In this document: positions 2,476 to 27,000 of the stretch, in pieces | Numbering within the stretch: position 1 is the first letter of the stretch | Layout of the letters: every line of letters begins with the position of its first letter | Origin: Prorocentrum cordatum | Lineage: Eukaryota | Length of the DNA stretch: 52,108 nt | Assembly (NCBI GenBank): GCA_963575745.1 | Contig: CAUYUJ010000004.1 | Coordinates: 620,001-672,108 of the forward strand | Direction of reading: 5' to 3' | The notes under the pieces: generated by a model | Told to the model about the DNA's origin: nothing | What the model saw: only the letters and a program-made list of their open reading frames with translations | Database searches by the model: none | Position numbers and translations under genes: made by a program

Positions 2476-2506
<31 letters not shown>

Positions 2507-4713: not shown

Positions 4714-5269
4714 TGATGTTAGAGCTCCAGGGAGCTGTAACATGACATGTTAGAGCGCCAACGGAGCTCTGTCATAGCATGTTGTTAGATTATGTTAGAG
4801 TTCTCTGGGGGATCTAACATGTGAAAGTCGGCGGTGCGTGGAGGGCGGCGAAGCCTTCCTCCACCTCCTCCTTCTCCTCCTCCCCCCCTCCTCCTCCCCA
4901 CCTTCTAGTTCTAATTCAGAAGTCCCTGAATTCCCTCCGCCCCTGATCCCCGACCGCGCCCCAGGGAGCAAGGCCGCCCCGCGAGGGCGGGGAGGGCCGC
5001 GCCCTATTCATGTTTCGCCGTGGTCGAAGACAGGGCCCCGCCCCCATGTTTCACCGTGGTCGAAGACAGGGCCCCACCCCTGCGCCCCCGCCTTCCAAGG
5101 GGGAAGCCTTCGTTCTCGAGGTCGAGGACAGGGCAACGGTGCGCGCGAGAGGGCGGCCGTGTTCGGACATGTTACCTTACTTATGTGCGTTTAAAAAGAG
5201 GGGGGTGGGGGCCCGATGGGACGACGACGACGATGACGACGACGACGACGGCGGGGGGGGGCGGCTCGA

Positions 5270-8066
5270 TGGGAGCTCTAACATGCTATGCTAGAGCCCC
5301 CATCGGGCTCTACCATAGCATGTTAGAGTTCACAACCCTCACATCGAAATCTAACATAACACGTTAGAGCTCTCAGGGAGCTCTCACATACCATGTTAGA
5401 GCTCCCAGGGAGCTCTAACATGCCACGATAGAGCTCCAAGGGATCTCTAACAACATCCAATGTTAGAGCTCGAGGCTAACATGCCATGTTAGAACTCCCT
5501 GGGAGCTCCAACATGCCACGTTAGAGCTCCCACGGAGCTCTAACATACCATGTTAGAGCTCCCAGGGAGCTCTAACATACTCGAGCATAGAGCTCCGTTG
5601 GAGCTCTAACAAGCCATGATAGAGCTCCCACGGAGCTCTAACATACCATGTTAGAGTTCCCAGGGAGCTCCCACTGAGCTCTAACATGCTATGTTAAAGC
5701 TCCGCTGGAGCTCGGTATTTTTGAGCACACAGGGGGCTCTACCATGGGAGCTTTAAGATAGCATGCGAGATCTCCCTCGGAGCTCTAACATACTCGGACA
5801 TGCGATGTTAGGGCTCCGTTGGAGCTCTACGGACTAACAGCCATGTTAGAGCTCCCAGGGAGCTCTAACATACTGGAACATGCTATGCTAGAGCTCCGTT
5901 GGAGCTCTAACATTCCATGTTAGAGCTCCCACGGAGCTCTAACATACCATGCTAGAGCTCCCTGGGAGCTCTAACATACTCGAACATGCTATGTTCGAGC
6001 TCCGTTGGAGCTCTAACATACCATGTTAGAGCCCCCATGGGGCTCCCACTGAGCTCTAACATGCTATGTTAAAGCCCCGCTGGAGCTCGGTATTTTAGAG
6101 CCCGCAGGGAGCTCTAACATGGGAGCTCTAATAGAGCATGTTAGAGCTCCCAGGGAGCTCTAACATACTCGGACATGCTATGGTAGAGCTCCGTTGGAGC
6201 TCGAACAAGCCATGTTAGAGCTCCCACGGAGCTCTAACATACCATGTTAGAGCTCCCAGGGAGCTCTAACATACTGGAACATGCTATGTTAGAGCTCCAT
6301 TGGAGATTTAACATGCCACGATAGAGCTCCCAGGGAGCTCTAACATACTCGAACATGCTATGTTAGAGCTCCGTTGGAGCTCGAACGAGCCATATTAGAG
6401 CTCCCACGGAGCTCCAACATACCATGGTAGAGCTCCCAGGGGGCTCTAACATACTGGAACATGCTACGTTAGAGCTCCCACGGAGCTCTAACATACCATG
6501 TTAGGGCTCCCAGGGAGCTCCCACTGAGCTCTAACATTCTATGTTAACGCTCCGTTGGAGCTCGGTATTTTTTGAGCTCGCAGGGAGCTCTAACATGGGG
6601 GCTCTAATATAGCATGTTAGAGCTCCCTCGGGGCTCTAACATACTCGAACATGCTATGTTAGAGCTCCGTTGGAGCTCTAACAAGCCATGTTAGAGTTCC
6701 CACGGAGCTCTAAAATACCATGTTAGAGCTCCCAGGGGGCTCTAACATACTTGAACATGCTATGTTAGAGCTGCGTTGGGTTATAACATGCATGTAGAGC
6801 TCCCGCCGGAGAGCTCTAGCATTTTACATGTTAGCGCTCCCAGGGGAGCTCTTAACAACTCGAACATGCCATGTTAGAGCTAGTTGGAGCTCTAACATAC
6901 CATGTTAGATCTCCCAGGGAGCTCCCAATGAGCTCTAACATGCTATGTTAAAGCTCCGTTGGAGCTCAGTATTTTAGAACCCCCAGGGAGCTCTAACATG
7001 GGAGCTCTAATATAGCATCTTAGAGCTTCCAGTGAGCTCTAACATACTCGAACATGCTATGTTAGAGCTCCGTTGGAGCTCTTAACAAGCCATGTTAGAG
7101 CTCCCACGGAGCTCTAACATACCATGTGAGAACTCCCAGGGAGCTCTAACATACTGGAGCATGCTATGTTAGAACCCCGCTGGAGCTCTAACATGCCGTG
7201 TTAGAGCTCCCGCGGAGCTCTACCATACCATGTTAGAGCCCCCAGGGTGCTCTAACAGACTTGAACATGCTATGTTAGAGCTCCGTTGGAGCTCTAACAA
7301 GCCATATTAGAGCTCACATGGAGCTCTAACATACCATGTTAGAGCTCCCAGGGGGCCCTAACAGACTGGAGCATGCTATGTTAGAGCTCCGTTGGGGCTC
7401 TAACATACCACGTTAGAGCTCCCACGGAGCTCTAGCATACCATGTTGGAGCTCCCAGGGAGCTCCCCCGGAGCTCTAACATGATATGTGAATGTTCCGTT
7501 GGAACTCGGTATGTTAGAGCTCCCAGGGAGCTCTAACATGGGAGCTCTAACGTAGCACGTTAGAGCTCCCAGGGAGCTCTAACATACTCGAAAATGCTAT
7601 GTTAGAGCTCCGTTGGAGCTCTAACGCGCCATGTTAGAGCTCCCACGGAGCTCGAACATACCATGTCAGAGTTCCCAGGGAGCTCTAACATACTGGAACA
7701 TGCTATGTTAGAGCTCCGTTGGAGCTCTAACATACCATGTAAGCTCCCTGGGAGCTCTAACATACCACGTTCGAGCTCCCAGGGGTTTCCCACTGAGCTC
7801 TAACGTGCTATGTTAAAGCTCCGTTGGAGCTCTGTATTTTAGAGCTCCCAGGGAGCTCTAACATGGGAGCTTTAATATAGTATGTTAGAGCTCCCTGGGA
7901 GCTCCAACATGCTATGTTAGAGCTCTCCGGTAGCTCTAACCTACCCGCCGCCGCCGCCGCCGCCTCAGAGCTCCCACGGAGCTCGAACATACGATGTTAG
8001 AGGTCCCAGGGAGCTCTAACATAATCTAACATACGATGTTAGAGCTCGATTGGAGCTCTAACATAC
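5270..8066. repeat. Main block of GAGCTC palindromic satellite with higher-order variants
   Basis: Continuous tandem units. A marker variant (CCCACTGAGCTC...AAAGCTCCG.TGGAGCTCGGTATTTT) recurs every ~330-540 bp. Confidence 0.95.
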
Positions 8067-9790: not shown

Positions 9791-10142
9791 TTTCTTGGTG
9801 CCGCTGGGGTGTTGCAAAATCTCTGGGCCCACCCATCAAGAGCTGGTAGGCCATCTGGGGAGAACTCGACAGGCTCTTGGCGCCCTCGCTCGCTGAAAAT
9901 GCATTAATCTTCGCATTGCTTCGAGGGATGGGCGACTTCCGACATCCATGAGTTCGTCTAGAATTGGTTGCGGCTATTTTCGCTGTGCTTCCTATCCGCC
10001 CTCTGGACGTTCCATGGGCTACAACGGCCCCTGTTCTTCCATCATTGCCCAATTCCATTCCCGCCACGGCTCCAGCCCGACCTGCAACAGGCGCGAGAGG
10101 TGGAACGGCCAGCCCGCAGCTGAACCAGCCCGCCTGAGTGCG

Positions 10143-13100
10143 ATGAGCGGCTTCGCGGCGCAGCCGTTCAAGGACTTCTGGGCCGACAAGGTTTTCCCCC
10201 TCATCGAGACTGACTTCAAGCGGCTTCTCAAGACCATTCCGAAGCGCGTCGCCGAGAGGGCCGAGAAGCCGGAGAGGGAGAAGCCAGACAAGTCGCAGGA
10301 GGACCAGTCGAAGAATATCTCGAAGAAGGACAGCAAGGACAGAACTCCATTGCAGGAGAAGCTCGCCAGGATCATCGAAGAGTGCAACGAGAAGGGCGAG
10401 CGCAGGAATGCCTATCTGAACCTGGCGTATACGGCGCCCATCGACAACAGTCTCCTGGAGGAGAATATCACGGTGGGCAATGTGGAGAACGCGGCTGCGG
10501 ACGTGTTCATGTCGAACGTGCCGACGGACGACGCGGCTGAAACAGCGAACGACTCTCTTGAGGGCGCTGGCGACGTCGAGTGCACAGCCCAGGGCAACCC
10601 ACAGCGGCGCATCGTGGAGACGCTAAGCCAGGTCAAGCGTGGCAGGCCTTGGAACATCCCGAAGCAGGTTGAGAAAGGGTTCGAGATCCCCATCATGATC
10701 ACCTACGTGAACCAGACCGCTGTGCCCGAGACCGGCAAGTTCAAGCGTTTGGGCAGTGACGTCGTGGTCAACGCTGTCTGGCTGGCCTACTACTGGGCGA
10801 AAGAGGAAGGCAACAGGAAGGCCGCACAAGCGCTGGAGGACTTGATTCTGGATTGGCCCTTCGATTTCGTGCTGATCCCGGGGCGCGCGGCTGAGGATAT
10901 CGAGGAGAACAAGTTCAAGTGGTCTGTCAACCAGAGAGCCCGCCACGAGAGCCTGCGCGCCTGGCTCGGTGTCGAGAACCAGAACCTCATGCGCATCGTG
11001 GCACGTGCGGCGGAAATCTTGAAGAGCGGCGGGCCAGGTGGCGGGAACCCCTCGGCAGAGAAGGCGCAGGCGTGGTTGGAGAACAACATACAGTGGGGAC
11101 TTATGCACTGCCCCAGCCTGAGGACCGTCAAGACGCACACGATCAACTGGCCCGCTCTCGATAAGTGCCTAGGGGCATTGCTGCTTTTGGATGCCGCCGT
11201 GAACCGTTGGGGGCGAGACAATCTGCTGGACAAGCCCACGCAGCTTGGGATGATCACCGCGAAGACGGACGCTACCACGCTGGGGCACGTCTTGGAAAGC
11301 CTGTACACGCGGATGTGGCGGAAGAGCGTGAAGGACCCGTACAGCGCCTCCACCATCGGCCAGGTAGTGGCCGAGATCTTGTGGGCGAAGAAGTACGTGG
11401 CGAACTTTCTGAAACAGTACCCAGACTTGTTCAAAGGCAGCACTGGCTGCAACAGCACTGAAACACCAGACACACAGGATAACGCCGCCGAGAGAAAAAT
11501 CATGGTCATGGCGACGCAATACCTCGACTCGCCGCTCAAGTTCCTCGAGAAGACTGAGGGGCCTGACAAGGACCCGACCTGGGTGCAGTCACTGCCGACC
11601 GACGCGCTGCGCCTGGCGATGAGACACTTCCTCGAAATAGGCCAGGAATTCTACAAGCAGGAGATCTCTGGCGCCCTCACCCAGTCGTACGCCGAGCGCT
11701 ACAACATGGACAAGTTCCACAGGAGCGTGCGAGTGAACAAGAGGTTCTTCGAGAGGTTCCAGATCGCGTACGACTCCCTCGTGGGAAACCCCCAGGAACC
11801 GTCAGAGGAAAAGCCTGCAGACAGCGACACGGTCGGTGCTGCAACAGCGGGCGGTGCTGGAACAGCGGAGGCGGCTTCCGAGGACAAGAACAAGATCGAC
11901 GTCTCCCCGAGCGACGTGAATAACTTCAAGGCGCTGTGCGAGCAGCAGTGCTCTACCGTGCTGGATACGCGGGTCGTCATGATCACGGCGGAGGGCAGCG
12001 CCATGGATATCAACGCTTCGGTTACTAAGACACGCCTATACCAGAACCTCACAGAGAATGCATCAGTGATGGGCTTCTACGACGTTACGAATGCGAAGTT
12101 GCGCTGCGTCTTCGAGGGGCAATGCCTCACGCACCGTGAGCCCGCGCTGGACGAGCAGGGTTTCACACGCTACCTGAAGTCCCTGGAACCGCTGATGGTC
12201 GGTGGACGGGACGTGCTGTGGGTGTTGACGGGCCGCGCGCAGTCGAACCTCCCGAAGATCCAGAAGATCTTCGTCGCAAACAAGTTCCGCACGGTCACAT
12301 ACCACCTCGCCTACAACGCGAAGCATATGCAGCAGTACGGCCACTTTCAGAGGCAGCGAGGCTTGGCGAACTCGCGCTCGCACGAGGTCATGTTGCTCTG
12401 CTACAAGGGGAGGAAGCCGAAGCAAATGGCCAAGTCCAGGCAGTTCGTGGACGCGGGCAGCCCCCTCTTCAACGAAGTGATGAGGAACGTGCCTGTCCTG
12501 CAGCAGAAGAGCCACGCCCTCGTGCCCAAGCAGGTTTGGGAGACCAGCTTGGCCAGCATGGTCGGCCAGTGCGTCACCGAGGTGGAGGCCGAGGAGCGAG
12601 AGAAGCTGGGGTACTGCCACCCTCTTCAGGAGGACGACGAGGGCGCTGATTGTGGCGCCGAGGCGCTCGACGAAGCTGCAACAGCCGTCCGCCCCGAGAA
12701 GGCCCTCGTGACTGCGGCCGTGAAGAAGCGGAAACTCTACCGCCAGCTCACGGGAACGGAGGTGCCGTGGTTCCCGCACGACAGCGACATCGAGTTCCTC
12801 AAGGAGCTGTGCCACGAGGCGGGGAAGCCCAGGTGGGTGTACTTCGGCGCGCCTGCGGGCGGCGCAGGCATGCACGGCTGCATCGAGAGCGGGCGCAGTG
12901 TGTTGGCCTTGACTTTCGACGACCACCACGCGAAGGTGCTCAAGCCTTTTCTCGTGGAGCGTGCCGTCGAGGCCATGCTCGGGAGCAGCACCATGGTGTT
13001 CGTGAACGAGGACCTGCTTGCACGCTCTGTGGAGTTGCGCCTGACAAAGGAGGGCCCGAAGGAGGACCCGAAGGATGGGGAGAAGGAGGGCGACAACAAG

Positions 13101-13283
13101 AAGGGGGGCAAGAAGGAGGACAAGAAGAAGGTCAAGAAGGATAATAAGAAGAAGGACAAGAAGGATGACAAGAATAAGGGTAAGAAGGGTAAGAAGCGCG
13201 ACGCCGGCGCGTCCTCGACCTCAGACTCCTGGTCCTCAGACGACTCCTCGGCCTCGAAGAAGAAGAAGCCGAAGACATGCTGA
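10143..13283 (+). CDS. Intronless ~1046-aa protein: ParB/Srx-like N-terminal region, helical middle, beta-class N6A/N4C DNA methyltransferase-like domain (degenerate motifs), Lys-rich tail
   Basis: Open frame 9948-13283 with strong GC3 bias from ATG 10143. ParB-like: GFEIPIMIT...KRLG...WPFDFV...KWSVNQRARHESL. MTase-like: FTRYLKSLEPLMVGGRDVLWV, HEVMLLCYKG, FPHDSDIEFLKELCHEAGKPRWVYFGAPAGGAGMHGCIESGRSVLALTFDDHHAKV. The CDS is near certain; the domain labels are by-eye inference. Confidence 0.85.
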   Translation: MSGFAAQPFKDFWADKVFPLIETDFKRLLKTIPKRVAERAEKPEREKPDKSQEDQSKNISKKDSKDRTPLQEKLARIIEECNEKGERRNAYLNLAYTAPIDNSLLEENITVGNVENAAADVFMSNVPTDDAAETANDSLEGAGDVECTAQGNPQRRIVETLSQVKRGRPWNIPKQVEKGFEIPIMITYVNQTAVPETGKFKRLGSDVVVNAVWLAYYWAKEEGNRKAAQALEDLILDWPFDFVLIPGRAAEDIEENKFKWSVNQRARHESLRAWLGVENQNLMRIVARAAEILKSGGPGGGNPSAEKAQAWLENNIQWGLMHCPSLRTVKTHTINWPALDKCLGALLLLDAAVNRWGRDNLLDKPTQLGMITAKTDATTLGHVLESLYTRMWRKSVKDPYSASTIGQVVAEILWAKKYVANFLKQYPDLFKGSTGCNSTETPDTQDNAAERKIMVMATQYLDSPLKFLEKTEGPDKDPTWVQSLPTDALRLAMRHFLEIGQEFYKQEISGALTQSYAERYNMDKFHRSVRVNKRFFERFQIAYDSLVGNPQEPSEEKPADSDTVGAATAGGAGTAEAASEDKNKIDVSPSDVNNFKALCEQQCSTVLDTRVVMITAEGSAMDINASVTKTRLYQNLTENASVMGFYDVTNAKLRCVFEGQCLTHREPALDEQGFTRYLKSLEPLMVGGRDVLWVLTGRAQSNLPKIQKIFVANKFRTVTYHLAYNAKHMQQYGHFQRQRGLANSRSHEVMLLCYKGRKPKQMAKSRQFVDAGSPLFNEVMRNVPVLQQKSHALVPKQVWETSLASMVGQCVTEVEAEEREKLGYCHPLQEDDEGADCGAEALDEAATAVRPEKALVTAAVKKRKLYRQLTGTEVPWFPHDSDIEFLKELCHEAGKPRWVYFGAPAGGAGMHGCIESGRSVLALTFDDHHAKVLKPFLVERAVEAMLGSSTMVFVNEDLLARSVELRLTKEGPKEDPKDGEKEGDNKKGGKKEDKKKVKKDNKKKDKKDDKNKGKKGKKRDAGASSTSDSWSSDDSSASKKKKPKTC

Positions 13284-13864: not shown

Positions 13865-15107
13865 ATGGCTGCCTCGGGCGGCAGCGGTCGCGACAGGAAC
13901 AAGGTTCTCTTCTATGAGTGGGGCTGTTACTTGCAGGGTGACGGGTCGAACAACGACAAGATCAACAAGAAGCTGAGGGAGACCTGCAGCAATAGCATGG
14001 CCAGGGTGGCAAAAAGGGGCCCCGACCGCAAAAGTGACGCTGGAGAAGGTAACGAAGAACAAATGTGTGTTGAGGTGGTCAAAGCCAGTTTCGTATGACA
14101 CCTGCACGCGGCTCCTCAAGATTGCGCTGGGCGCCAACTGGAAAGACTATGTGAGCAAGCCTGCGGGGGTGCCAGGGCGCCCGAAATGGGCTGGAACAGC
14201 TAACGCTGCAGAAGATGAGCCAGCTGTCGCCGAGGGCCACGGTGTCGCAGGAGAAACCCTAGAGGACGCGCTGGGGAAGGTGCTCGTTCCCGCCGCGGGC
14301 GGGGTATCGGAGCCTACGCCACCGACGGCTGCTCGTCGCGGGTCTGCTGGTCCGAGAGCGGTGTCCCACGACGAGGGTCGTGTGAATCTACTTGCACTGA
14401 AGCTCGACGCGGTCGGGCACGCGTACGAAAACAAACAGAAGGGCAAGTGCGAGGACCTGCCGCCCGAGTACGACTTGCAGTGGGAAGGAGGGGAGCTCGG
14501 TGAGGGCTCTTTCGGCAAGGTCTACTTGGGCACGCGACAGGGCGACAAGACTGGCCTTGCGATCAAGATGCTGCGGGACGACCCCAGCGATGCGCAGAAG
14601 GGGTGCCATGCGGATGCCGTCGGAGGGGCTCTGGATGAGGTCATGCGCCGCGGCGCTGTGGGCACGCGCCCGCGTCTCGTTCGCTTACTCGACGTGGGCC
14701 TTTTCAGGAGGTTGCGCCCAGGAACTGCAACAGTCCCGAAGAAAGCACACCGAGAACTGCAACAGTCAGTACCAAGGATAGATAGGAAATGGACGGAGCA
14801 CATCGGCCTCGTGCACGAGTTGTTCGAGATCGATGTCTGCCAATTCCTCAAGCAGGCCTCCTTCACGCAGACAGGGATGCGCCGCGTCCTGAACAGCGTT
14901 CTCGAAGGGCTCCAGTACATGCACGACAGGGGCCTCATTCACTGCGACATCAAGCCCGCGAACATCCTGATGCGAGGGTCGCCGCAGACGCGCGGCTGCT
15001 TCGAGAAGCAGGCGCTTGTATCACGTGAGCTTGGCGAATGGGATCCCGTCGCGCCGTGCCCAAAGAGCAAGCTGCAGTTCGACTGGCAGATCCCGAGTTC
15101 CTTCGAG
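13865..15107 (+). CDS. Ser/Thr protein kinase-dioxygenase fusion, exon 1 (N-terminal extension plus kinase subdomains I-VIb); one frameshift near 14010-14035
   Basis: GEGSFGKV Gly-loop, AIK lysine, IHCDIKPANIL catalytic loop. The upstream frame from ATG 13865 (MAASGGSG...) joins the 14034 frame across homopolymer runs. Confidence 0.8.
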
Positions 15108-15852
15108 GCGCGTCGTCGTCGTCGCCGTCGTCGTCGCCGTCGTCGTCGTCGTCCTCCTCCTCGTCCTCCTCGTCCTCGTCGTCCTCGTCGTCCTCGCCGT
15201 CCTCGTCGTCCTCGTCGTCCTCGTCGTCGTCCTCCTCGTCCTCGTCGTCGTCGTCCTCGTCGTCCTCGTCATCCTCGTCATCCTCGTCGTCCTCGTCGTC
15301 GTCCTCCTCGTCCTCGTCGTCGTCGTCCTCGTCGTCCTCGTCATCATCGTCATCCTCGTCATCCTCGTCGTCGTCGTCGTCATCCTCGTCATCATCGTCG
15401 TTCCTTCGACTAAGATCCCGAGTTGTCAGGGCTCACATGGAGCTCTAACATAGTATGTTAGAGCTCCCAGGGAGCTCTAACATGCTATGTTAGAGCTCCC
15501 ATGGAGCTCTAACATGCCATGTTAGAGCTCCATGGGAGCTCTAACCTAGCATGTCAGATCTCCCCAGGGAGCTCTAACATAGCATGTGAGAGCTCCGATG
15601 GAGCTCTAACATAGCGTGTTAGAGCTCCCATGGAGCTCTAACATAGCATGTTAGAGCTCCGACGACGCCCTCATCGAGGTCAGAGCTCAGCTTATCTCAC
15701 TAGCCTTCATGTTAGGTCTCACACCGAGTTCTAACAAGGGAGGTTCCACCCTTCCCCCGAGATGCCGTCGTCGTGCCCTCTATCCCGCCCTTCCCTCCAG
15801 GGGGAGCTCAGTCGCCGTCGCTCCCCTCTCCTCCATCCGCCCCTCTCCGCAG
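15108..15852 (+). other. Phase-0 GC-AG intron filled with (GTC/CTC) microsatellite and GAGCTC satellite
   Basis: GAG|GCGCGT donor at 15108 and pyrimidine-rich CCGCAG|GTG acceptor at 15852. Splicing gives ...QIPSSFE-VVLADLG, restoring kinase subdomain VII in frame. Confidence 0.85.
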
Positions 15853-17445
15853 GTGGTGCTCGCCGACCTCGGCTGTGTGGAGATGGCGGATCCCCACGGC
15901 AGGTTGAAGAGGAAACTGCGCTACAGCCCGACCTGCGATGACCTCGGAGTATGCACGCCCGCTTACAGAGCGGTAGACGTTTTCTTGGGGAACCAGCGCT
16001 ACTCAGAGGACCTGGACATGTGGTCCATCGGGTGCCTGATGGCGGAGTTGTACACGCGCAAGGTGTTGTTCCAACCAGAGCCTTGCGGCGCGCTCGGGCA
16101 TCCTCCAGGGGGGCACCCGAAAGACTTCGTGGTTTTCTGCAGGGAGGTCTTGGGGATCCCAGGCAAGGAGCCAGGGTCGGGAGACTTCTACAATTACGAG
16201 GGCCAGGAACCCGCCCCGTGGCTGGACAACCTGCCTTTCTTTGAGAAGTGGTTCAAGCGGTCGGGCGAGGATTGGCTAAAGGCTGAAACAGCGAAGGCAC
16301 TCGACGGCCGAGGGCGCTGGCCCGTTGACGAACTTGCAGACTGCCCCCCCAGACTTGTTGAAGGCCGCCGAGAGCTGCCTGCTTTGGCACCCTGGCGCCA
16401 GAGCGACAATCAGTCGTCTAAGGGCTTGTCGCTTCCTGCAGCCGGCTGGTGCCCAGCTCGTCGTGCGCATCTCCATGGCGCAGGGAAAAACGGCACGGGC
16501 GCGATAGCGGAGGCGGAGCTGGACCCAGACTTGCTCCGCTTCTTGCAGAGAGACCCGCACTGGCAGAACTTGGCCGAGGAGCGCCTGGACACGGGATCAA
16601 CCGTCTCCAAATGCGTCCGAGGCGACGAGGCGGCAAAGGGCTTGAAAACAGAGGTCGCAGGCATCGTGGACGACGAAAGCCCCCCGAAGTGCCGCAGTCT
16701 AAACAAGGACGGGAATTTGCAGATCACCCCCTCGCCCCACATGGCCGCCTTCGTGCGAGCGCTGCGGAAGAAGATGCGCCCGTGGCTGCAACAGCTGGGA
16801 GACAAAATGCGCGAGGCTGTCAAAGCCGACGGCATGCCACCTGCCATCGTCGAGCAGAACGGAAAGCCCATCATGACAGAGCATTTCGCCGACAACGTGT
16901 TCGCGTGCGCATCGATCCAGCTCATGCAACCAGGCGCGCGGGACGATGGTTGGCACACAGATGGTGGCTGCTCCCTGTTGCACGCGGCCGCGACGATTTT
17001 CGGGGCGCGCTCCGTGCAAGTGAGGACCCCAGGGGTCCTGGGAGCACATGATGGGGCGTCACCCTCGAGCACGGCCTCCTGCGGAAGGGTCCTCACCCTC
17101 GAGCAAAAGCCTGGGTCATTCTACATGGGCGCCCTGTCCTCCCTCGAGCACAACGTGCACCACCGCGCCTCCGCGGACTGCCAGGACTGTTTCGCGACCC
17201 ACCACGAGCTGCAACAGCGCGTAGACGACAGCAGGCTGCAGATCGCCGTCATGATCCGCTCCGACCTCTTTCGGGAGTTCAGGGCGCGCAGGATCGACGC
17301 CACGCCTGGCCCGAAGGAGTTCTTCAACGTCGTGAACCGCGTCGTGGCCGATCACCTGGCGCGGGCCCCCGTGGCGCTGCCCGACCTCACGGAGGTGCTT
17401 GACGAAATGCGGTGGCCCGCTTCCACGGAGGGGCTTTCCGATTGA
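15853..17445 (+). CDS. Kinase-dioxygenase fusion, exon 2: kinase subdomains VII-XI (CMGC-like) plus C-terminal AlkB-type 2OG-Fe(II) dioxygenase
   Basis: DLG, CTPAYRAVDV, DMWSIGCLMAEL. Subdomain XI (DLLKAAESCLLWHPGARAT) is in a shifted frame between C7 at 16344-16350 and A5 at 16486-16490. Then GWHTD (HxD), FGARSV, KPGSFYM...LEHNV (distal His), RLQIAVMIR (Arg). Confidence 0.8.
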   Translation: MVLADLGCVEMADPHGRLKRKLRYSPTCDDLGVCTPAYRAVDVFLGNQRYSEDLDMWSIGCLMAELYTRKVLFQPEPCGALGHPPGGHPKDFVVFCREVLGIPGKEPGSGDFYNYEGQEPAPWLDNLPFFEKWFKRSGEDWLKAETAKALDGRGRWPVDELADCPPRLVEGRRELPALAPWRQSDNQSSKGLSLPAAGWCPARRAHLHGAGKNGTGAIAEAELDPDLLRFLQRDPHWQNLAEERLDTGSTVSKCVRGDEAAKGLKTEVAGIVDDESPPKCRSLNKDGNLQITPSPHMAAFVRALRKKMRPWLQQLGDKMREAVKADGMPPAIVEQNGKPIMTEHFADNVFACASIQLMQPGARDDGWHTDGGCSLLHAAATIFGARSVQVRTPGVLGAHDGASPSSTASCGRVLTLEQKPGSFYMGALSSLEHNVHHRASADCQDCFATHHELQQRVDDSRLQIAVMIRSDLFREFRARRIDATPGPKEFFNVVNRVVADHLARAPVALPDLTEVLDEMRWPASTEGLSD

Positions 17446-17462
17446 TAGGCAGCACGGCCCGC

Positions 17463-17730
17463 GATCATCATCTTCATCGCCATCATCATCGCAATCATCA
17501 TCGATTTCACCATCCTCGTCATCATCATCATCAGCATCAACATGTTCACGCCGCCATCATCGTCATGCGGGTCTTGATTTAATCATCATCATCATTACAT
17601 GATGATGACGATGACGAGGAGATGATGATGGATATTATGACGATGACGATGATGAGGAGATGGTGGTGATGATGGCGATGACGCGGACGATGATGAATAT
17701 CATGACGACGATGATGACGATGATGATGAA
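17463..17730. repeat. (CAT)n followed by (GAT)n microsatellite in inverted arrangement
   Basis: Directly visible; it separates the dioxygenase stop codon from the truncated Copia end. Confidence 0.9.
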
Positions 17731-17779
17731 ACTGATGCAAAAACAGGTTGGGTCGGTTGAGTCCGAAAACTTCGCCTTA

Positions 17780-18587
17780 AACCAAGCCAGAAGAGAGGTG
17801 CACCGATAAGTCCGGGTACTGGCTTCGCACATTCAAGAACATACAAATGCGTCTGATCATCTGGAATCGCTGCAAACTCCTTGGGAAGCTTCTTCAGGTG
17901 ACGCCAAACGTTGGCCGGTGGAACAATATATACTTCACGCTCTTGTCGTACATCCAGTCCTAATTCTTTCGAACGTTCTGCGAGTTCCCTGAAACGAAGT
18001 CCCTGGAGGAAAGCTGAGGAGATGTCCCAGCTCTCCAGCCCGAAGTCGGGCTCGCACTGACAGATGGATACCATCATACGCTGCGATACACGCGCTGCCG
18101 TCGATGAGTGTCTATCCACTGCCCATTTCTGATTGTCCAGAAAACCACGACCACACAAGCGAGAGCGCATCACCCATTTTTTCTTCCACATCCAGCGTCT
18201 AGCCCACGTGGCGTCGATGAAGTTCTCATTGTTGCACTCAGATTTCAGCTTGGGTTTGAAGCACTCGTGCTTTACGTAGTTCTCGATCTCCTTGAGGTCC
18301 GCCTGCTCGATCTGCGGCCATAAGTTGCCAAACTCTGATTTCTGTATTAGCATGACTCCTTGGGAAGCATATATCTCTACCATTTCGTGCTCAAGCAAAT
18401 CCACATAGAAACATCCCGACGGTGAAGATGTGTCGTTCGTCTTGATGGTGCAGCACGACTCTGAACCCTGCCACGGTTTTGCTGCAGCATGATGGTGAGT
18501 ACTATCAATGTCTGTGATGACTGCGTCCTTGTAATCAATCCACTTGCTGTCCATGAAAAGAGAATGAAGTCCTTTAGTCGGTGTCAC
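17780..18587 (-). pseudogene. Copia-type reverse transcriptase N-terminal half (RVT_2-like)
   Basis: RSRLCGRGFLD, WDISSAFLQG, REVYIVPP, KPVPGLIGAPLFW (cf. K..YGL.DAP..W); it ends before the YxDD motif. Confidence 0.9.
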
Positions 18588-20554
18588 AATCGGTCTCTCG
18601 GAAGGCCCGTTAGAAAATGTGTGTACAACTCCTCAGCATCTGCTAGTGGCATGAGTGACTGCTGTTCTTCCGCAGCTGGTTCTTGACCATCTCCAGACGG
18701 TTCGCCATCCAGCAACTCCTCTAGGTCCTGTGTCAAGTTGTGGTCCTCATTCTCCATTGTGTTGTTCACCTCGCCATGGCTGCTATCTTGAGCCGAGATT
18801 GCTTGATCAACCTCAGGAAGAGCGATATGTTCTCCATCACCTGGTCGAGCCTGCTTCCTCTCATGTCCAAGATCAATGATGCTGTCATCCAGACAAGAGG
18901 TATCATATCTCGTCCGTTTGACAATCGAGGGAGCCATTTGCTGTTCTGGAACTGCTTCTGTACTGTCCGATGGTGCTGTAAGGTGTCTTGGTGAATGCGA
19001 TCGAGATCTGGCTGCTGAGGAAGTAGTAGGATTGCCTTCTTCCTGCGTTCTTAGAAGACTGCGTTCCAGCTCGTCCAGTAACTGATGTGCCTCAACGATA
19101 TTGCTCAACTCGCGATCAAGTCTCTTTCTCTCAAGTCTGGTTCTGCTTCTGTCATGTTCCTCGCTTGAACTGCCTGTTGCAGCCTGAGGTGGTTTAGCCG
19201 ATGGTTCCGGAAAAGGTCGTGCGGATTGATCATTATCATCATCATCTGCTTGCGGTACTGGTGTCGGTCTCGTTCTGCGCGGTGGTTTCTGAATAGCATT
19301 GATGACCCTCTTGAGGTTGTCGTGCATCTCGTCGATCAGCGGTTTTCCCACATTCTCTGAAGATGACTCTGGTGACATAGATGATGTCTCCTGTCGCACT
19401 AGCTGTCTATCTGGTGACCAAGGAAGTTGAGGTACTTGAGGTACTTGAGTAGGTGGCTGCACTGGCGAATATGTCGGAGATATCGGCGATCTCTCGAAAG
19501 TCTGTCTGTCACGTACGGGCGTCTGCGGAGTTGAAGGTTGAAATTGTTCCGATGAGATATGCGTCTCTTCCATCGCAGCTGCCCTTGAGTTTACCTGATG
19601 TGAGAGATCCATATCTTCTTCTTATTCGATCGGTGCCAGTGGTCGAAAGATATTCGGTACTTCATAGGGATCTTCGTCAATGAACGGAATGTCGCTGAGG
19701 TCTGGTAACTCACACTTCTCCGGCGGTGTGTCCAGGTACATGTTCTTGGAGAGGAAGATCATGAAGTGATATTTGCCCCACTCTGCACCCTCAGGCTGCA
19801 AGAAGTTGATTGGCATGGTCGGATCCATTTCCTGACTATAATAATGTTCGCGTAGATTCGACTTCCATGCGACAACCACAGCTTGAGAACATCCTGCCAG
19901 ACCTTTAAGATAACGAATACCTCCTCCAAAGATGAAGCCATCCATACTTGATGATCGGAATGCCGTAGTACCGATTTCCATTGTTAAGAGCCATATCGGT
20001 GGAGGATCCTGCAGTAGTCCAGGAGGTGTCACTTGCTCGTGGAAGGTGCCCATGCGGTACTGAATGCCCGGTGGTGTGCCTTCCACATACTCAAACAATG
20101 TATGCAGCTTCTGTGAAATACCATCTTGCAAGTAAGCCTCACTCGAGCACCATGATACTCCCAGGGCATAGTAACTGAGACGTCGTGCACGTAGATGTCT
20201 GACTGGGATCATATAAGGCTGGTTCAGATGAATCACAATGGCCGTCGCCTTCTGCTTGTCCAGGCTAATGAACTCTGCCGGGCCACGCCAGCCATCTGGA
20301 TCCTTGCGAGCAGGGGTCCTCCATATATCGATTGCATCATGAGGTTTGAGAGTGTCGATCCAGGAAACATCTTGCGTTCGTTGGCGTGTGTTGTTGGCCT
20401 TGGTGATTCTCTCTTCGATAATAGCCTGAAGAATATTGGATTTGGCCATCAACAGAAAACGAGGGTGTTGTTCCGTGGGATCTGCCGTCATGTCCGCTGC
20501 ACTCTGACTGGAGGTGAACGCGCCAGACTCTGGGTCGTACGCATCCTTAGGCAT
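18584..20554 (-). pseudogene. Copia pol segment between integrase and RT (post-integrase region and low-complexity linker)
   Basis: Consecutive same-strand ORFs 19622-20554 (IDIWRTPARKDPDGWRGPA) and 18584-19612 lie between integrase and RT. Confidence 0.7.
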
Positions 20555-20704
20555 GAAGCCGAAGAGACCCTGAGCAGGTACTGAGCCTCAGTAGCTTGTG
20601 AACAAGTTTGCGACCATGGCAGACTCCTCAACGATGTCCTCGTCAGTGATATCTGTCAGACCCCGTTTGATGACATCTCTCTTCGTTTTCAAAGCCGTCA
20701 ATTT

Positions 20705-21140
20705 TCATGTTTGAATGGCACGCTCAACCAAGCCTGTGGTGGTGCGACCATCAGCTCCTCCAGAGACTAATGTGATCGTGTACCTGTCTGCGAATTTTGC
20801 CCAATGCGCGATAAGAGTCCTCAAAAGATCTTGCCCAGATTTCGTAGCCAACGGAGCTGCAATCCGATAGCGTATGCATTCGTCGATCAACATCATCCAG
20901 GTTTTGTCAAAGAGGAAAAAGAGATCCAGCTGCACCCGCTCGTTGAACTTCAATGAGATCATCACCTTGAGCTGCGGCTTGTTCATTGCTCGCTGACGTT
21001 GAAGACATGTCTCACAGTGTTCTGCAAGCCGCTTACAAAGATCTCGAATAGGTGCTGGTAGTCCAAGTGCCCGAATCATTCTCTCCATCTCGTAGTCAGG
21101 TGGATGAAAAAAACTTGTAGTGCAGTCCCATGAGAAGCTT
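20705..21140 (-). pseudogene. Integrase (HHCC zinc finger plus partial DDE core, internally deleted)
   Basis: LHYKFFHPP (first His in a shifted frame)...CETC; FNERVQLDLFF (first Asp); GLVER (Glu). The segment holding the second Asp appears missing between AHW and AKFADRY. Confidence 0.85.
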
Positions 21141-21654
21141 GATGCGCTCTTCGTCACTGGTGGCCTGCAACAGCTTCTGGAAATCTTGCCCAAGTCGGCG
21201 GACGGCTTCACGATCTTGGCGCTATCCTTCTTCTGAGTAGTTGTGGCCGTGTCAGGCCTCGGAATGACTGGCGTAGGAGGAGCGGGAACAGCCTCATGAA
21301 CCGTGTCAGAAACTTCTGCTGGAGCTGCCACTGGCGCAGCTGGAGCAGGTTCCGCTGGGGCTGCCATCGGCGCAGCCGGTGCAACTTCTGCTGGAGCTGC
21401 TGCCTGTGCTGCTGGTACTATTGCTGGAGCTGGTTCACCTTGTGCTAATGGCGATGCTGATGATGTTGCCGATGCACTGCCTGCTGTTGCTGGAGCTGCT
21501 GATGATGATGCTGCTGCATCCTGTTCAGGAGGTTCAACAGGTCGGAAACGAGAACCATGTGTTCGCGTATGAGGTACTCCTGAAACTGCTCCAATTTGAC
21601 AGCGTTTGCACGCCCAGTTGATCTGAACCGAAGTGGAATGCATATAATTTACCA

Positions 21655-22290
21655 TGTCCTTGACCAAGGCTCTGCAAAGATTTGCTGGATAGACCGCTGC
21701 AAGAGCTGTCCGCTTCCTGCCTTGATCGTCTGTACCTTGGAGATTTGCATGTTGTCCTGTGCACTTGCAGGGCCTGGGCGTGCCCTTCAGCCGAGCTGTG
21801 CTCTTGAAGATTGTCCTCTTGCGGATGGGCTTACTCAGGTCGGTACTCCAGGCTCCATGTGCACATTGATCCGTGACGTTGTCATGTAGTTCATGCGATA
21901 GCTTATCCTGTAGAACTCGAAGCTTCGACAATGTCCAAATAGCCGAGCGATGCGTATTTTCCAGTACAAGAAATCCACCATTGTGATCAACAGCTGGTGC
22001 ATACACGTCAGTAGCCCAGGCGATCAGTGGTCTTTCTGCATCACGGCGTTTCTCGAGCTCTGTAGGTTCGGCATTGTTGTCTGACTGAGACCAGGGCCGA
22101 CAGTAGAACTCTAGCATTGAAAACAGAGGTTGAAATGCCTGATACAACTCCATCATGAGTCCCTGATGATCGGTCCGATGAAGGCCCCATCCATAACGAT
22201 AGCCCAGTGGAGGAAGAACAATATAATGTTGACGAAAGGTAGCACAATATACTCCAGACGTGCCTGCAAAGACTTCGAACATCAGGACCG
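21655..22290 (-). pseudogene. Cytosine-5 DNA methyltransferase-like domain inside Copia pol
   Basis: FEVFAGTSG (motif I), EFYCRPWSQ (motif IV Cys), VLENT (motif VI), DQCAHG...IRKRT, and terminal AAVYPANLCRALV, in C5-MTase order. Confidence 0.7.
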
Positions 22291-22899
22291 CCTTCGAGAG
22301 CACCGGAGACATGTGTCGAATAGAATATCGAACATGTTCGGGTCGAATCACCGACAGTCTCGAAGTGGAATCGAGCTTCTCCGTCATGATCTCATACTCC
22401 TTGGCCATCCGATGGCAATCGGTGTGCTCGAAGTTGTTCGGCCACTCGTCTTCAATGTATCGTGTGCTGCCAAAGCTTCTCCATATGTTGTAGAACTCCT
22501 TCGCGTCGTGATTGTGGAATGCCCCATAGACCTGCTTGCTTGAAATATTGTCTGCTGATGCAGGTGTCCGCGGCAGCGCCGCAGAGTTCATGGCCAGTCT
22601 CTGTAACTCACTCTGATTCTGCGCTTCGGGGTGATACTCTGAACTGGTCGTCATCAACATTCTCGGTCGTTTCGTGCGAGAGAATGTTGCATGCAGTTTC
22701 CCATTTCGCATCTCGATCAAGTTCATCATGTCCTCTGCTGTCGCTGCCGTCTGCGCCTTCACGTTGTCTGCGGGGAGCACGTAGTGACCTGAGTCCGTCA
22801 GGAGAGCCCTAGACATGGCGGGAAGCTTGTTGTCAGGGATAAAGGCCAGGATTCCATCGCCATTGGCGTACATATTCTCGAACAGAATGCACTTCTGTT

Positions 22900-23260
22900 T
22901 GAACATTGTGCTGTTCGGAAGAAGTCCAGGGCATCTCGAACCAGGTCCACCGATGATATCTGCTCGAAATGTAATGCCTCTTTCAATTTCCTTCTACCAG
23001 AATAGGTCCTAGGAAACTGCCGCGCGAGGAATCTGGTTGTCCATTGATACTTGTAAATGATTCATTTGATGGTTCCAGCTGATAAGAGAGACCACGCTTG
23101 TCGTAAATAATTCTCTTTCACTCAAGTAGTGTCTCCGTGCCAAGAAGTCTTTCTGCCGCTCCAGGATCAACGATGAGTCCATGCTGAGGACGTCCTTTGA
23201 TTGAGTGTAGTATCAGATATGGATCATTCACTGATTCGTTCTGATTGTATGTCTGTGGAT
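22900..23260 (-). pseudogene. Retroviral-type aspartic protease remnant
   Basis: HGLIVDPGAAERLLG (D-P-G variant of D[ST]G) at ~23140-23185, followed by a stop codon. Confidence 0.7.
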
Positions 23261-23773
23261 ATAAATGCATATTTCCATTTGAGCTTGCTATCCGGCAATC
23301 GGATGACAGCCATGCCGAGCGTGAGTCTGGTGAAGGCCAATCTGTGTGACTGAAAACCTCACCAGATGAACGGCTGGCCCGGTCCTGCGCGGCGACATCT
23401 GACTCATGGCGTCCATCACTCCAACCATTGAACATCACAACTAGGGCGTGCTGCTTTGCCAACTTCTGAGCCAATGTGAGCGTCGGTTGATCCACACCTC
23501 TGCTGCTTGCTGCTCCCGGTGATAGTACATCTCTCAGCGGTGTCCGCGTTCTGGCTGTCGATGCTGGCGATGAGAATAAAGGCTCAGGTCGAAGAGCGGG
23601 TCGTGCCGGAGATCCTGCCTGTGGAAGTTCTACGTCTGGTGTCTCTGGGTTGTCCATCTGATCCAATTGATAGTATTTTGTCTCTCGTGTCACTGGGATC
23701 GCACTTGCTGTAGAGCCAACTTGTTCAGGAGATTCCGGTCTCAAATCGATCCATGATCCAGGAGGTCGTGTCG

Positions 23774-25042
23774 TCATTTTTCGAGGTGCCGCTGCTGAGG
23801 CTGTCGAGAAGGCTGTGACATTTGCATAATGACGCGCCTTGCCTCCGAATCCTTTGCCTTGTCCTTTGCCTTTCTGCTGCTTACCTTGGCCGCGCTGACT
23901 GTGCTGAGGCCGCCCATGACTTTGACCTTGCGCTGGACAAGGCGATGCTGCATGCCATTTGCTTCCACAGATAGTGCAGCGTTTAGCTTTCTGACCATTC
24001 TCCCGAAACGATCGTTGGGACCGCCGCCACGACCTTTACCGTTTCCAGAACTACCTTTGCTTTTGCCCTTGCTGAACTTCCGGCGGTAGCCCTTGCCTTT
24101 GTTTTTACCTTTGCGGCGGCCTCGTCCTTTACCTTTGCCGTAGTAGGTCCCCTGTGATTCTTCGTCTCCGTCATAATACTCTGTCAGGTTGCCGTCGCCG
24201 TCGTACCTGGCCCAGACATCTTCATATTCTTGAAAGTACCATTCTCCGTCATAGGTGGCAGTCCAACCGTAGTCCTGATCATAGCCCCACCCTTACATAT
24301 CGTCGCAGTAGGCCTCATACCAGTCGTCTTCGTCATCCTCATCTTCGTCATTGCACCAGGCCCACTCGTGATGCGAGTTCACCTGGTCCTGCTTTCCGAG
24401 GCGCAGCATGAGCTGCATCAGAGTACGATATTGATTTACATCTCCTGCCACGTGAAGCTTAAGATCGTCTAACCTTTTGTCCTGCATTCCGCAGTTCTTG
24501 AGAAGAAAATGTGACTTGCCGACGTCGTTCATGACCAGGCGTCCTTCTTCGCACGCATCCTCGCAGGCCAATTCGAAAGATGCAATCCATGTTGGAATAG
24601 CAGCGTGCGCTCCACGTCGGCAATCGAAGAAACCATCCAAAACAACTCCAACTCTATCTTGATCGTGTAGTTCATAGATCGCCTTCTGCTGATTCAGAAA
24701 GATCTTGATGCCCGGCAGCTGCGCCTCGATGCCTGCTGCTGGGTCCTCTGGCACAGGAGGAAGTGCCACTGTATCATCACCTCGATAGTGAATGCCATCT
24801 CTGATGATAGTGAGCGACATTGCTGCGGCGAAGGGGGCCCCCTGCAATCTGCTGACTATGAGGGGCCCGATTCTCTCGTAGGTGTTCTCGTCAGTAATCC
24901 TCCACCGCAGCTTTAGCTTCTGCTGATATCGCCGAAATGTATATCCTCTGGTGTGGGGCCGCCATCCTGGCGGCACGTAATTCGTGAACTCTTCTAAGTT
25001 GAGGTTGCCGTGCTGGCTGCTGTTCGGCTGCTGGTGCGCCAT
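23774..25042 (-). pseudogene. Copia gag (frameshifted) with acidic stretch, GKGK-rich region and CCHC zinc knuckle
   Basis: ORF 24293-25042 (VPPGWRP...). The minus strand at 23937-23978 reads CTICGSKWHAASPC = C-x2-C-x4-H-x4-C. Confidence 0.85.
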
Positions 25043-25311
25043 GGCGGCCCTTGTAGAAAAACAGGTGGAAAAAGAAGATGAAGTTCATGAAGAACTTCCA
25101 GTGCGTGAAGATCTGCTGGCGTGATCGCTTTGATGTATTTGATGAACTCGGGGCTCCTGATGCACTCAATCTCGTGCTGAAGCCCCTCGACTGTGAAGTC
25201 GTTGTCAGTCGGCTGGAAGTAGCCGAACACGCAGTGGCCTGCGGAGGCGCGAGCGCGCCGCTGGGCGCGCGAGGGGGGCCGGGCGACCGGGGGCCCGCAG
25301 AGTGATGCATC

Positions 25312-25500: not shown

Positions 25501-26059
25501 AGGAGGAGGAGGAGGAGGAGGAGGAGGAGGAGGAGGAGTGGGCGGGGGGGCTCGGGGCCGATCGACGATTGGCGACGGTGATCGGCGACGGTGATTGACG
25601 ATGACGACGACGGTCGTCGACGGCGACGACCGACGACGACGACGACGACGACGATGGACGACGACGACGACAGTTGACGCCGCCGATCGGCGAACGGCGA
25701 CGACGACGACGCCTTCACAGTGCCACCCCGAGGAGCCCCAAGGCGGCCCAAGAGGGACCCAATATGACCCATGATAGCTACAAGCCAGCCCAAGAGAGCC
25801 CCAGAAGGCACCCAACAGAGCCACAATGGGGGCAAGCAGAGCTGCCTATTGAGATTCTCGGGAGGCCTCTTCCGCAGCGTCCGAAATCATGTTCCCCGAA
25901 GCCTCTATCGGAACATGATTTCGGGGCCCCCAGGACGCCCAAGGGGGGCCCTAAGACGGCCCCGACAAGTCCTAAAAGGACGCTCGAAAAAAAACCCGGA
26001 GGGGCACAGTTCGTTGATTTCCGCGACATGTTGTTGGATTTCTCGCACGCGGAGGCGGT

Positions 26060-27000
26060 GGAGGAGGAGGGGGAGGAGGAAGAGGAAAGGAGGAAGAGGA
26101 GATGGGCGAGGAGGGGGAGGAGGAAGAGGATGGCGAGGGGAGGGGGAGGGGGTGGAGAGAGGGGGGACGGGGGGAGGAGGAGGGAAGAGGGATGATGATG
26201 ATGCTGATGATGATGCTGATGGTGCTGATGATGGTGATGATGATGATGATGATGATGATGATGACGGGGGGGGGGGGGGGGAGGAGGAAGGAGAGGGGAG
26301 GAGGAGGAGGCGGAGGAGGAGGAGAAGGAAGAGGGGGAGGAGGAGGAGGAGAAGGAGGAGGAGGAGGAGGAGGAGGAAATGACGAGGAGGAGGAGGAGAG
26401 GATGGGGGGGCGGAGGAGGAGGAGCAGGAGGAAAGGGGGAGGATGTGGAGGAAGAGGAGAAAAGGAGGAGGAAGAGCAAGAGGGAGGCCTCCCCCGAGTG
26501 TTCCCTTTATCCGATGTGGCCCAATGCTTGCGCGGCGTCGCGCCGTTTGGCGAGCCATGTAGTCTGAACAGGAGGAGGAGAAGGAGCAGGAGAGGAGGAG
26601 GAGACGAGGAGGAGGAGGAGGAGGAGGAGGAGGAGGAGGAGGAGGAGGAGGAGGAGGAAGGAGGAAAGGAGGAGAAGGAGGAGGAGGAACATGATGAAGA
26701 TGATGATGGTGATGGTGATGATGATGACGATGAGGAGGAGGAGGAGGAGGAGGAGGAGGAGGAGGGGGAGGAGGAGGAGGAGGAGGCGTGGAGGAGGAGG
26801 AGGAAGAGGAGGAGGGGGAGGAGGGAAAGTAGGAGGAGAAGGAGGAGGAGGCGGAGGAGGAGGAAGAGGAAAAGGATGAGGAGGAGGGGAGGAATGGGGT
26901 TGGAGGAGGAGGAAGGGGGAAAGGAGGGGACGATGGGGGGAGGAGGAAGAGTAGGAGGAGAGGAGGAAGAGCAAGGGGAAAGAGGAGGACGAGGAAGAGG
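26060..27000. repeat. Polypurine (GAG/GGA)n and (GAT)n low-complexity tracts
   Basis: Directly visible. Confidence 0.95.

Follow-up and report, generated by a model that had tools for sequence, protein, structure and literature searches.

Introduction

Proteins of the AlkB family, which are 2-oxoglutarate/Fe(II) (2OG/Fe(II)) oxygenases, combine a beta-helix core with an N-terminal extension, an HxD...H triad and a conserved arginine on the last core strand. HIF-type prolyl hydroxylases (PHDs), such as PHD2/EGLN1 and the Trichoplax and Dictyostelium PHDs, follow the same logic of triad and arginine. The TET/JBP proteins, likewise 2OG/Fe(II) oxygenases, act on DNA bases in protists and carry HxD and H...R motifs. 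Here we analyze a gene in a 52,108-nucleotide (nt) stretch of DNA from Prorocentrum cordatum (contig CAUYUJ010000004.1; hereafter the window), in which a serine/threonine kinase resembling the cyclin-dependent kinases (CDKs) is joined to a C-terminal domain that shares the core, triad and arginine of the AlkB proteins. This gene is one member of a large family in marine protists that has had no annotation, and whose products combine a domain of approximately 85 residues, a CDK-like kinase and an AlkB-like oxygenase domain of approximately 310 residues.

In dinoflagellates, 5-hydroxymethyluracil is made by homologs of TET/JBP named CryTJ1 and AmpTJ1 (PMC11572971), and the available portion of that article mentions no kinase for either of them. 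A fusion of a kinase with AlkB or with any oxygenase was not described in the literature searched, as judged by titles and the beginnings of abstracts. In one further article (PMC11312118), the word kinase occurs solely as a reference gene. The domain architecture is new, and within a known superfamily the family forms a new, divergent branch. An earlier note on this sequence had called the architecture unusual; it is conserved in the relatives described below.

Results

Gene model

The window has a GC content of 50–70%, long open reading frames (ORFs) and abundant satellite repeats, an appearance that suggests the nuclear genome of a microbial eukaryote rich in GC. The analysis confirmed a single gene on the + strand at 13865–17445, encoding a small N-terminal domain, a CDK-like Ser/Thr kinase and a C-terminal domain of approximately 310 residues. 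Its reading was followed through with homologs from an ATG at 13865 to a TGA at 17443–17445, and requires one intron and three single-base frame changes. The parts of the gene are:

13865..14011, + strand, start codon and first part of the N-terminal domain; frame 2, reads ...VLFYEWGCYLQGDG...
14011..14015, + strand, frame break 1 in a run of five A; one A fewer takes frame 2 to frame 0
14012..15107, + strand, rest of exon 1; frame 0, with the end of the N-terminal domain, the linker and the kinase N-lobe through the catalytic loop
15108..15852, + strand, intron of 745 nt; GC...AG followed by G, placed by frame arithmetic and sequence
15853..16344, + strand, first part of exon 2; frame 1, with DLG, activation segment, DMWSIG and C-lobe
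16344..16350, + strand, frame break 2 in a run of seven C; one C fewer takes frame 1 to frame 2, ..DCPPDLLKAAESCLLWHP.. (kinase subdomain XI)
16345..16485, + strand, end of the kinase domain and linker; frame 2, reads ...ISRLRACRFLQPAGAQLVVRISMAQGK
16486..16490, + strand, frame break 3 in a run of five A; one extra A leads back to frame 1, ..GKNGTGAIAEAELD..
16480..17442, + strand, predicted AlkB-like 2OG/Fe(II) dioxygenase domain, 321 residues as modelled; assigned from the AlphaFold (AF2) model, fold searches and conservation
17443..17445, + strand, stop codon TGA

The intron joins frame 0, in which the last codon ends at 15107, exactly to frame 1, in which the first codon starts at 15853. 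The spliced junction (...IPSSFE-VVLADLG..., the hyphen marking the joint) is matched by the unbroken homolog P0130, which reads ...LPVTFEVVLGDLG... across this region. Related metagenome contigs read ...SPQ-VV(L/V)GDLG, with intron-like sequence before it and CAG-G at the same place. The contig of homolog P0132, of 2,835 nt, contains an 839-residue ORF that is continuous across the intron site of the window, which would fit a spliced transcript but is not proof of one. The W-x-x-Y/F-L pattern at the start of the protein is akin to the N-termini of full-length homologs (for example, '..YSRWAFYLKAG..' in P0132). The earlier note had proposed that splicing out 15108–15852 and repairing the frameshifts would give one protein, and this is borne out by the GC..AG intron, the junction match in P0130 and the location of all three breaks in homopolymers. 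The dinoflagellate spliced-leader motif had 0 matches within the window, and Rfam gave no match in the window. The GC content, the GC-AG intron and the marine distribution would suit a dinoflagellate as well as a haptophyte-like alga.

Repeats were observed inside and directly past the gene. In the intron, a 9-nt repeat, (TCGTCGTCC)n, is present in 31.9 copies at 15113–15399, and a 32-nt palindromic unit (GGAGCTCTAACAT...ATGTTAGAGCTCC) in 7.4 tandem copies at 15424–15660. The palindromic unit has 76 matches in the window, as compared to 0 expected, with other copies at 14–8006. The summed word depth over the palindromic repeat of the intron reached approximately 40,000–50,000 (two runs), which marks the unit as a very abundant satellite. 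Similar palindromes are found at the intron-side ends of two related contigs (L006 and L007). Long ATC/ATG-rich repeats of triplet or 9-nt type, noted by eye, directly follow the stop codon at 17450–17700.

Kinase and N-terminal domain

The kinase motifs, all named in the earlier note, are:

14499-14516, + strand, kinase motif GEGSFG
14559-14567, + strand, kinase motif AIK
14940-14963, + strand, kinase motif HCDIKPAN
15865-15873, + strand, kinase motif DLG
16015-16032, + strand, kinase motif DMWSIG

The APE-like motif of the window kinase reads YRAVD. The Pfam Pkinase profile matched exon 1 with E = 7.3e-17 (62.1 bits against a cut-off of 31.7; positions 5–132 of 263) and exon 2 at positions 157–198 with E = 2e-07. 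The score of the latter match (31.1 bits) falls just below the cut-off because the C-lobe fragment alone matches. The relatives gave full-domain Pkinase matches, with E-values down to 5.7e-44. Almost no variation is seen across the family in the G-loop, the VAIK lysine, the alphaC glutamate or the HxD-KPxN, D(L/F)G, APE-like and DxWSxG motifs. In a comparison of homolog P0198 with the PDB, the best match had E = 4e-33 and the best 60 of 994 matches were all CDKs. CDK chains were also the best PDB matches (about 3e-31) of a profile built from relatives with kinase columns.

Among solved structures, the CDKs (CDK2, PfPK5 and Pho85) are thus the closest to the kinase part, with E-values of about 1e-31 to 4e-33 and all catalytic motifs present. 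Unlike the CDKs, the present family has a variable insert of 50–100 residues that separates the catalytic loop from D(L/F)G, no visible PSTAIRE-like helix motif in the sequence, and extra domains at both the N- and the C-terminus. Judging from the motifs and the profile matches, the kinase is complete and apparently of the active type, a CMGC/CDK-like Ser/Thr kinase.

The N-terminal domain of approximately 85 residues has a beta-alpha-beta-beta-alpha-beta order in a low-confidence model, with a predicted local distance difference test score (pLDDT) of 64.7. Foldseek gave only generic ferredoxin-like matches for this domain, none at E <= 0.001, and a word search gave no match beyond the query itself. 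As a separate observation, the N-terminus is MPTR in six homologs (P0144, P0163, P0185, P0198, P0212 and P0236), with a conserved tryptophan about nine residues on, and the same pattern is internal in P0231 and P0256. The window copy starts with MAASGG... ahead of the tryptophan, as compared to MPTR in many full-length relatives.

Fold and active site of the C-terminal domain

The C-terminal domain contains the following motifs and key residues, numbered as in the 321-residue model; the three motifs are at the positions given in the earlier note:

16948-16962, + strand, oxygenase motif GWHTD
from 17146, + strand, oxygenase motif EHNV
from 17233, + strand, oxygenase motif RLQIAVMIR
16954-56, + strand, key residue H159
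16960-62, + strand, key residue D161
17122-24, + strand, key residue Y215
17149-51, + strand, key residue H224
17257-59, + strand, key residue R260

The AF2 model of this domain, built with an alignment of 47 sequences, has a pLDDT of 90.8 and a predicted template modelling score of 0.90. It displays eight core strands arranged as a double-stranded beta-helix; residues 184–202 and about 229–252 form two inserts that are variable or of low confidence. In the model, H224 is located on strand 223–228 and R260 ends strand 253–260. Residues D161, G175, Y215, H224 and R260 are invariant among the 47 sequences, down to 26% identity, and conservation reaches at least 90% for H159 and for a number of glycines and prolines. 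R260 is also invariant in an alignment of 40 sequences. By their positions, H159-x-D161, H224 and R260 would constitute the classical set for binding iron and 2-oxoglutarate.

As far as a model can tell, the fold is settled as the double-stranded beta-helix of a 2OG/Fe(II) oxygenase, and the C-terminal beta-helix that the earlier note had named as a check is present. The motifs and their conservation in the family also bear out its view that a full kinase shares one gene with an intact HxD...H...R domain. In the Pfam search with the window protein, Pkinase alone was found and no 2OG family matched at E <= 1, including 2OG-FeII_Oxy_2 (PF13532), Tet_JBP (PF12851) and PF13640.

The fusion in relatives

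The C-terminal 321 residues alone matched the best relative with E = 1.3e-131, and 183 relatives of the domain were found at E <= 0.01 in a 90%-identity collection. An exhaustive search against clusters at 50% identity gave 433 matches at E <= 0.001, 189 at E <= 1e-10 and 31 at E <= 1e-30. As a sequence match, the similarity of the locus to this family is far beyond chance.

Among the 120 listed homologs (of 183), 53 carried a precomputed PF00069 annotation and none a 2OG family. The PF00069 carriers comprised essentially all listed homologs of at least 430 residues, with P0066 and P0080 as exceptions. A Pkinase domain was located upstream of the matched region in 20 of the 26 longer or more distant relatives scanned. 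The full-length forms, of 727–841 residues, run from an N-terminal region through a complete kinase to the oxygenase domain. Kinase C-lobe motifs and the HxD motif were present in one uninterrupted ORF in 8 of 22 metagenome loci (L002–L009), and the two parts were in different frames of one contig in another three (L013, L016 and L018). The remaining 11 loci were too short or contained the oxygenase part only. A scan of viral contigs gave no relatives, and a metagenome scan with the window protein alone as query gave no match.

The three loci with parts in different frames belong to a more distant clade, at 37–46% identity. An additional intron in the clade could account for their frame difference, or these may be broken copies as well.

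Based on the fold and the relatives, we consider it very probable that this is a real fusion family with a 2OG-oxygenase fold.

Frame breaks in the window copy

Compared with the family, the window sequence shows a single-base departure in each of three homopolymer runs (14011, 16344 and 16485). At the first break, A4 instead of A5 (14011–14015) would link ...MARVAK to GAPTAKVTLEKV..., and tblastn alignments of P0132, P0212 and P0130 enter frame 0 from 14016–14034. At the second break, C6 instead of C7 keeps the frame; subdomain XI, 'DLLKAAESCLLWHPGARATISRLRACRFLQP', is found in another frame as written, and homologs read ..EGCPEGLLQL..C L.WHP.. in this region. At the third break, A6 instead of A5 (16486–16490) would give ...MAQGKNGTGAIAEAELD..., and relatives read ...MQKGKNGTGTIAEGELD... 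in a single frame. Homolog P0004 is unbroken through the end of the kinase and the linker (..ARQCLFLQPPGEHNLRVRMSMQKGKNGTGTIAEGELD..). The corrected reading contains no stop codon.

The breaks at 16344 and 16485 are opposite in sign (+1 and -1). Frame 1 is thus open from 15655 to 17445 even as written, since the second and third changes compensate each other. The first change is uncompensated, and the reading from 13865 therefore stops at 14096–14098. Frame 2 meets a stop at 16505–16507 unless the reading returns to frame 1.

The contigs of two DNA-type runs, X1 and X2, between them included frame-keeping run lengths for each of the three sites. At 14011, contigs lacking one base accounted for a depth of 113.9 of 113.9 in X1 and 27.9 of 109 in X2. 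At 16344, X2 contigs lacking one base had a depth of 88.6 and those lacking two bases a depth of 38.6 (of 322), X1 giving no cover at this site. At 16485, contigs with the extra A had a depth of 147.6 of 474 in X1 and 43.3 of 236 in X2. The summed word depth at the locus was approximately 100–700, in runs of only 0.5–1.6 billion letters. Values of this size would suggest either many copies or a very abundant organism, with the caveat that depth sums across all contigs.

These data bear on the alternative that the parts are not one product at this locus, so that the stop at 16505–16507 is real, the product ends there and the oxygenase frame downstream is separate or dead. As written, the true kinase frame does end at 16507 and the reading from the first ATG stops early; at 16485 most of the contig depth in both DNA-type runs has the run length of the window, and three of the 22 related loci likewise have their parts in different frames. 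On the other side, both parts are in one frame in eight of the 22 loci and in every listed homolog with at least 460 residues (53 proteins), the two later breaks compensate each other, all three breaks are in homopolymer runs, and the window keeps 31 of 32 family-conserved positions of the oxygenase domain. We therefore regard separate products as improbable and retain the single gene.

Changes confined to homopolymers are typical of long-read consensus errors. For the window copy itself, the odds are about even between a very young pseudogene in a multi-copy family and an assembly consensus error.

Placement among the 2OG oxygenases

A Foldseek search of the PDB with the model gave 232 matches at E <= 0.001, with E-values from 2.4e-6. 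ALKBH5 and E. coli AlkB filled the top 15 rows; next came ALKBH3, ALKBH6, ALKBH7 and ethylene-forming enzyme. A PDB-wide aligner independent of Foldseek returned 2OG oxygenases in 50 of 50 rows (Z 8.6–11.5), among them TaPHD (11.5), ALKBH3 (11.3), FTO (11.2), PHD2 (10.9), ALKBH2 (10.7), NgTET1 (9.7) and E. coli AlkB (9.2); rows no more than 1 Z unit apart were counted as tied. When the top 1000 Foldseek chains were re-aligned, the scores were Z 12.0 for ALKBH2 (root-mean-square deviation, rmsd, 3.0 over 169 residues), 11.8 for ALKBH3, 11.4 for FTO, 11.3 for ALKBH5 and 11.2 for PHD2. Model residues 1–266 align with residues 63–258 of ALKBH2 (Z 12.0), and the corresponding range in ALKBH3 is 85–279 (Z 11.8). 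The alignments to ALKBH2, ALKBH3 and FTO start at model residues 1–5, so that part of the N-terminal 140 residues is superposed.

In a library of viral structures, AlkB proteins of giant viruses were on top, and polyproteins or replicases of RNA viruses also ranked high; some such RNA-virus proteins carry AlkB domains. A feature search based on a protein language model placed 24 of 30 matches in one set, whose shown cluster has PF13532 on 43% of its members. Judged by the model and these four partly independent routes, AlkB appears to be the nearest known family, with a margin over the prolyl hydroxylases of less than 1 Z unit and without HMM (hidden Markov model) support. The domain differs from the AlkB proteins in several respects: identity is only 8–13%, there is no HMM or profile match, two variable inserts lie between strands IV/V and VII/VIII, the arginine spacing departs from the AlkB motif, and a protein kinase is fused to it.

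The prolyl hydroxylases Trichoplax PHD, PHD2/EGLN1 and Dictyostelium PHD have equally good scores (11.5, 10.9 and 10.7 in the PDB-wide aligner; 11.2 for PHD2 in the re-aligned list), and PHD and prolyl 4-hydroxylase (P4H) structures spanned 10.4–11.5 in the PDB-wide aligner. The domain could accordingly be a protein hydroxylase, either of the PHD/P4H/OGFOD1 type or AlkB-like and protein-directed. Kinase and hydroxylase would then modify the same proteins or each other, with phosphorylation gated by the supply of oxygen, iron and 2-oxoglutarate. A prolyl hydroxylase of the HIF type (6f0w, Z 11.5, rmsd 3.7, 176 aligned residues) leads the unbiased structural search, and PHD2, the Dictyostelium PHD, a bacterial EF-Tu P4H and Ofd2 are all within 1 Z unit of the AlkB proteins. 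A shared protein substrate would also be the simplest logic for a fusion partner that is a protein kinase nearest to the CDKs, and the domain has no AlkB HMM match. However, the first 15 rows of the Foldseek ranking by structure and sequence are ALKBH5 and AlkB only, and 25 rows of AlkB-family proteins (ALKBH2, ALKBH3, ALKBH5 and FTO) precede the first PHD2 row in the re-aligned list. The viral library and the feature search point to AlkB/PF13532, and there is no sequence or HMM match to the prolyl hydroxylases and no P4H Pfam match either. We consider a protein hydroxylase, the chief rival reading, unlikely, at perhaps one chance in a few, and an AlkB-like domain somewhat more probable than a domain of any other 2OG clade.

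The earlier note had placed the motifs closer to AlkB than to TET/JBP, and the structures point in the same direction: NgTET1 (Z 9.7) scored below the AlkB and PHD rows, as compared to Z 12.0 for ALKBH2, and there was no Tet_JBP Pfam match. Its designation of the domain as an AlkB-type dioxygenase holds for the predicted 2OG/Fe(II) beta-helix fold; for the AlkB family itself the assignment is tentative, the prolyl hydroxylases being tied and an HMM match being absent.

Neighbouring sequence

On the + strand, like the kinase gene, an intron-less ORF of 1,128 codons (9897–13283) terminates 580 nt upstream of it. Pfam gave no match for this ORF. Its 16 relatives, most of them of approximately 1,030 residues and none with a Pfam domain, share strongly conserved blocks such as ..EVPWFPHD..LCHEAG.PRWVYFG.PAGGAG.HGC... 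A feature search gave a weak lead (0.83–0.84) to N6_N4 DNA methylases. Identification as a methyltransferase was rejected: Pfam, PDB sequences and hhalign against E. coli YhdJ were all negative, and the position of the DPPY-type motif reads AEG in all relatives, by eye.

Directly downstream, on the - strand, 17700–25084 contains a run of long ORFs (310, 345, 321, 762, 305 and 263 residues) in shifting frames, which gave no Pfam match at E <= 0.001 and may represent a decayed mobile element or an unknown gene. One 1-kb bin, 26001–27000, shows extreme strand asymmetry, with a GC skew of 0.80 and an AT skew of 0.54.

Discussion

We propose that the gene encodes a kinase fused to an AlkB-like oxygenase, in which oxidation of nucleic acids is coupled to kinase signalling, and we assign this reading a probability of roughly 0.55. 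The oxygenase would bind Fe(II) through H159, D161 and H224, and 2-oxoglutarate through R260, together with Y215. Its target would be a methyl or alkyl group carried by a nucleic-acid base, oxidised in the manner of AlkB, ALKBH2, ALKBH3, ALKBH5 and FTO. The covalently linked kinase would regulate the oxygenase or phosphorylate proteins at the same site, and base oxidation or demethylation would thereby be tied to signalling of the cell-cycle type. Taken by itself, a nucleic-acid substrate for the oxygenase, which is suggested by analogy with these enzymes, is a tentative assignment, with chances somewhat short of even.

A phage-like scheme, with the oxygenase producing a hydroxymethyl base for phosphorylation by the kinase, was set aside on the ground that this kinase is a typical CDK-like protein kinase. 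Another possibility is that the oxygenase serves mainly as a sensor of oxygen, iron or 2-oxoglutarate without an external substrate, controlling the fused kinase in cis by auto-hydroxylation or by a ligand-dependent change in conformation. Kinases are often fused to sensor domains and PHD-type 2OG oxygenases act as oxygen sensors, and a short, conserved linker (..FLQPPG...GKNG.G.I..) connects the kinase to the oxygenase, all of which would suit such a role. Yet the full catalytic set is invariant down to 26% identity, which fits real turnover, and the N-terminal stretch of approximately 140 residues, which is aligned to substrate-side parts of ALKBH2, ALKBH3 and FTO, is also conserved, suggesting an external substrate. 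A sensory role is therefore a weaker rival than a protein hydroxylase and seems improbable.

Several results count against coupled nucleic-acid oxidation by an AlkB-like enzyme. The sequence methods provide no link between the domain and AlkB. The earlier note had looked to HMM classification for a decision between 2OG-FeII_Oxy_2 and Tet_JBP, and neither family matched: the result for the window protein at E <= 1 was repeated in the family, where the Pfam 2OG families matched 0 of 40 members at E <= 10. The best match of the oxygenase-family profile to PDB sequences had E = 0.76, to an unrelated protein, and hhalign against E. coli AlkB gave a probability of 0.5%, a weak test with a single-sequence template that leaves kinship possible. 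In structure, the prolyl hydroxylases are tied with the AlkB family (TaPHD at Z 11.5, PHD2 at 10.9 and 11.2). AlkB proteins have an arginine pair on strand VIII, with five residues between the two. In sequence, the family seems to depart from this pattern, with four residues between the arginines in R260-S-D-x-F-R265. R265 is conserved at 90% or more in 40 sequences, R260 alone of the two being invariant. No nucleic-acid-binding feature was demonstrated in the domain.

At the level of the locus, the RNA runs X15 and X16 barely cover the gene and gave no joint across 15108–15852. The remaining depth at the three breaks has the run lengths of the window; this share is nil at 14011 in X1 and the majority at the other covered sites. 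The presence of window-type lengths in contigs of other runs implies that the breaks may be real and that this copy may be dead. As written, the window copy does not encode the full protein.

A more specific form of the proposal would give the family a dedicated role in erasing or oxidising a modification of nucleic-acid bases, with erasure gated by the cell cycle through the fused CDK-like kinase. We consider this a long shot. In a dinoflagellate host, the candidate substrate would be the very abundant N1-methyladenosine (m1A) of mRNA. Dinoflagellate mRNA carries abundant m1A (PMC11549093), and a search of that text for the four words eraser, demethylase, ALKBH and AlkB gave no occurrence. 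The conserved upstream gene, with its weak methyltransferase-like signal, might be a writer partner. If the eraser function were true, it would represent regulated base erasure in a protist lineage with unusual nucleic-acid chemistry.

For annotation, the locus illustrates that single-base homopolymer errors or young pseudogenes can mask such fusions. Hundreds of these proteins in marine data are labelled as 'protein kinase' only, or are unlabelled, because the oxygenase domain is invisible to Pfam. Some such protist lineages have heavily modified DNA and RNA for which the erasers are unknown, and the family provides a testable candidate for regulated nucleic-acid oxidation or demethylation, or for protein hydroxylation, in abundant marine protists.

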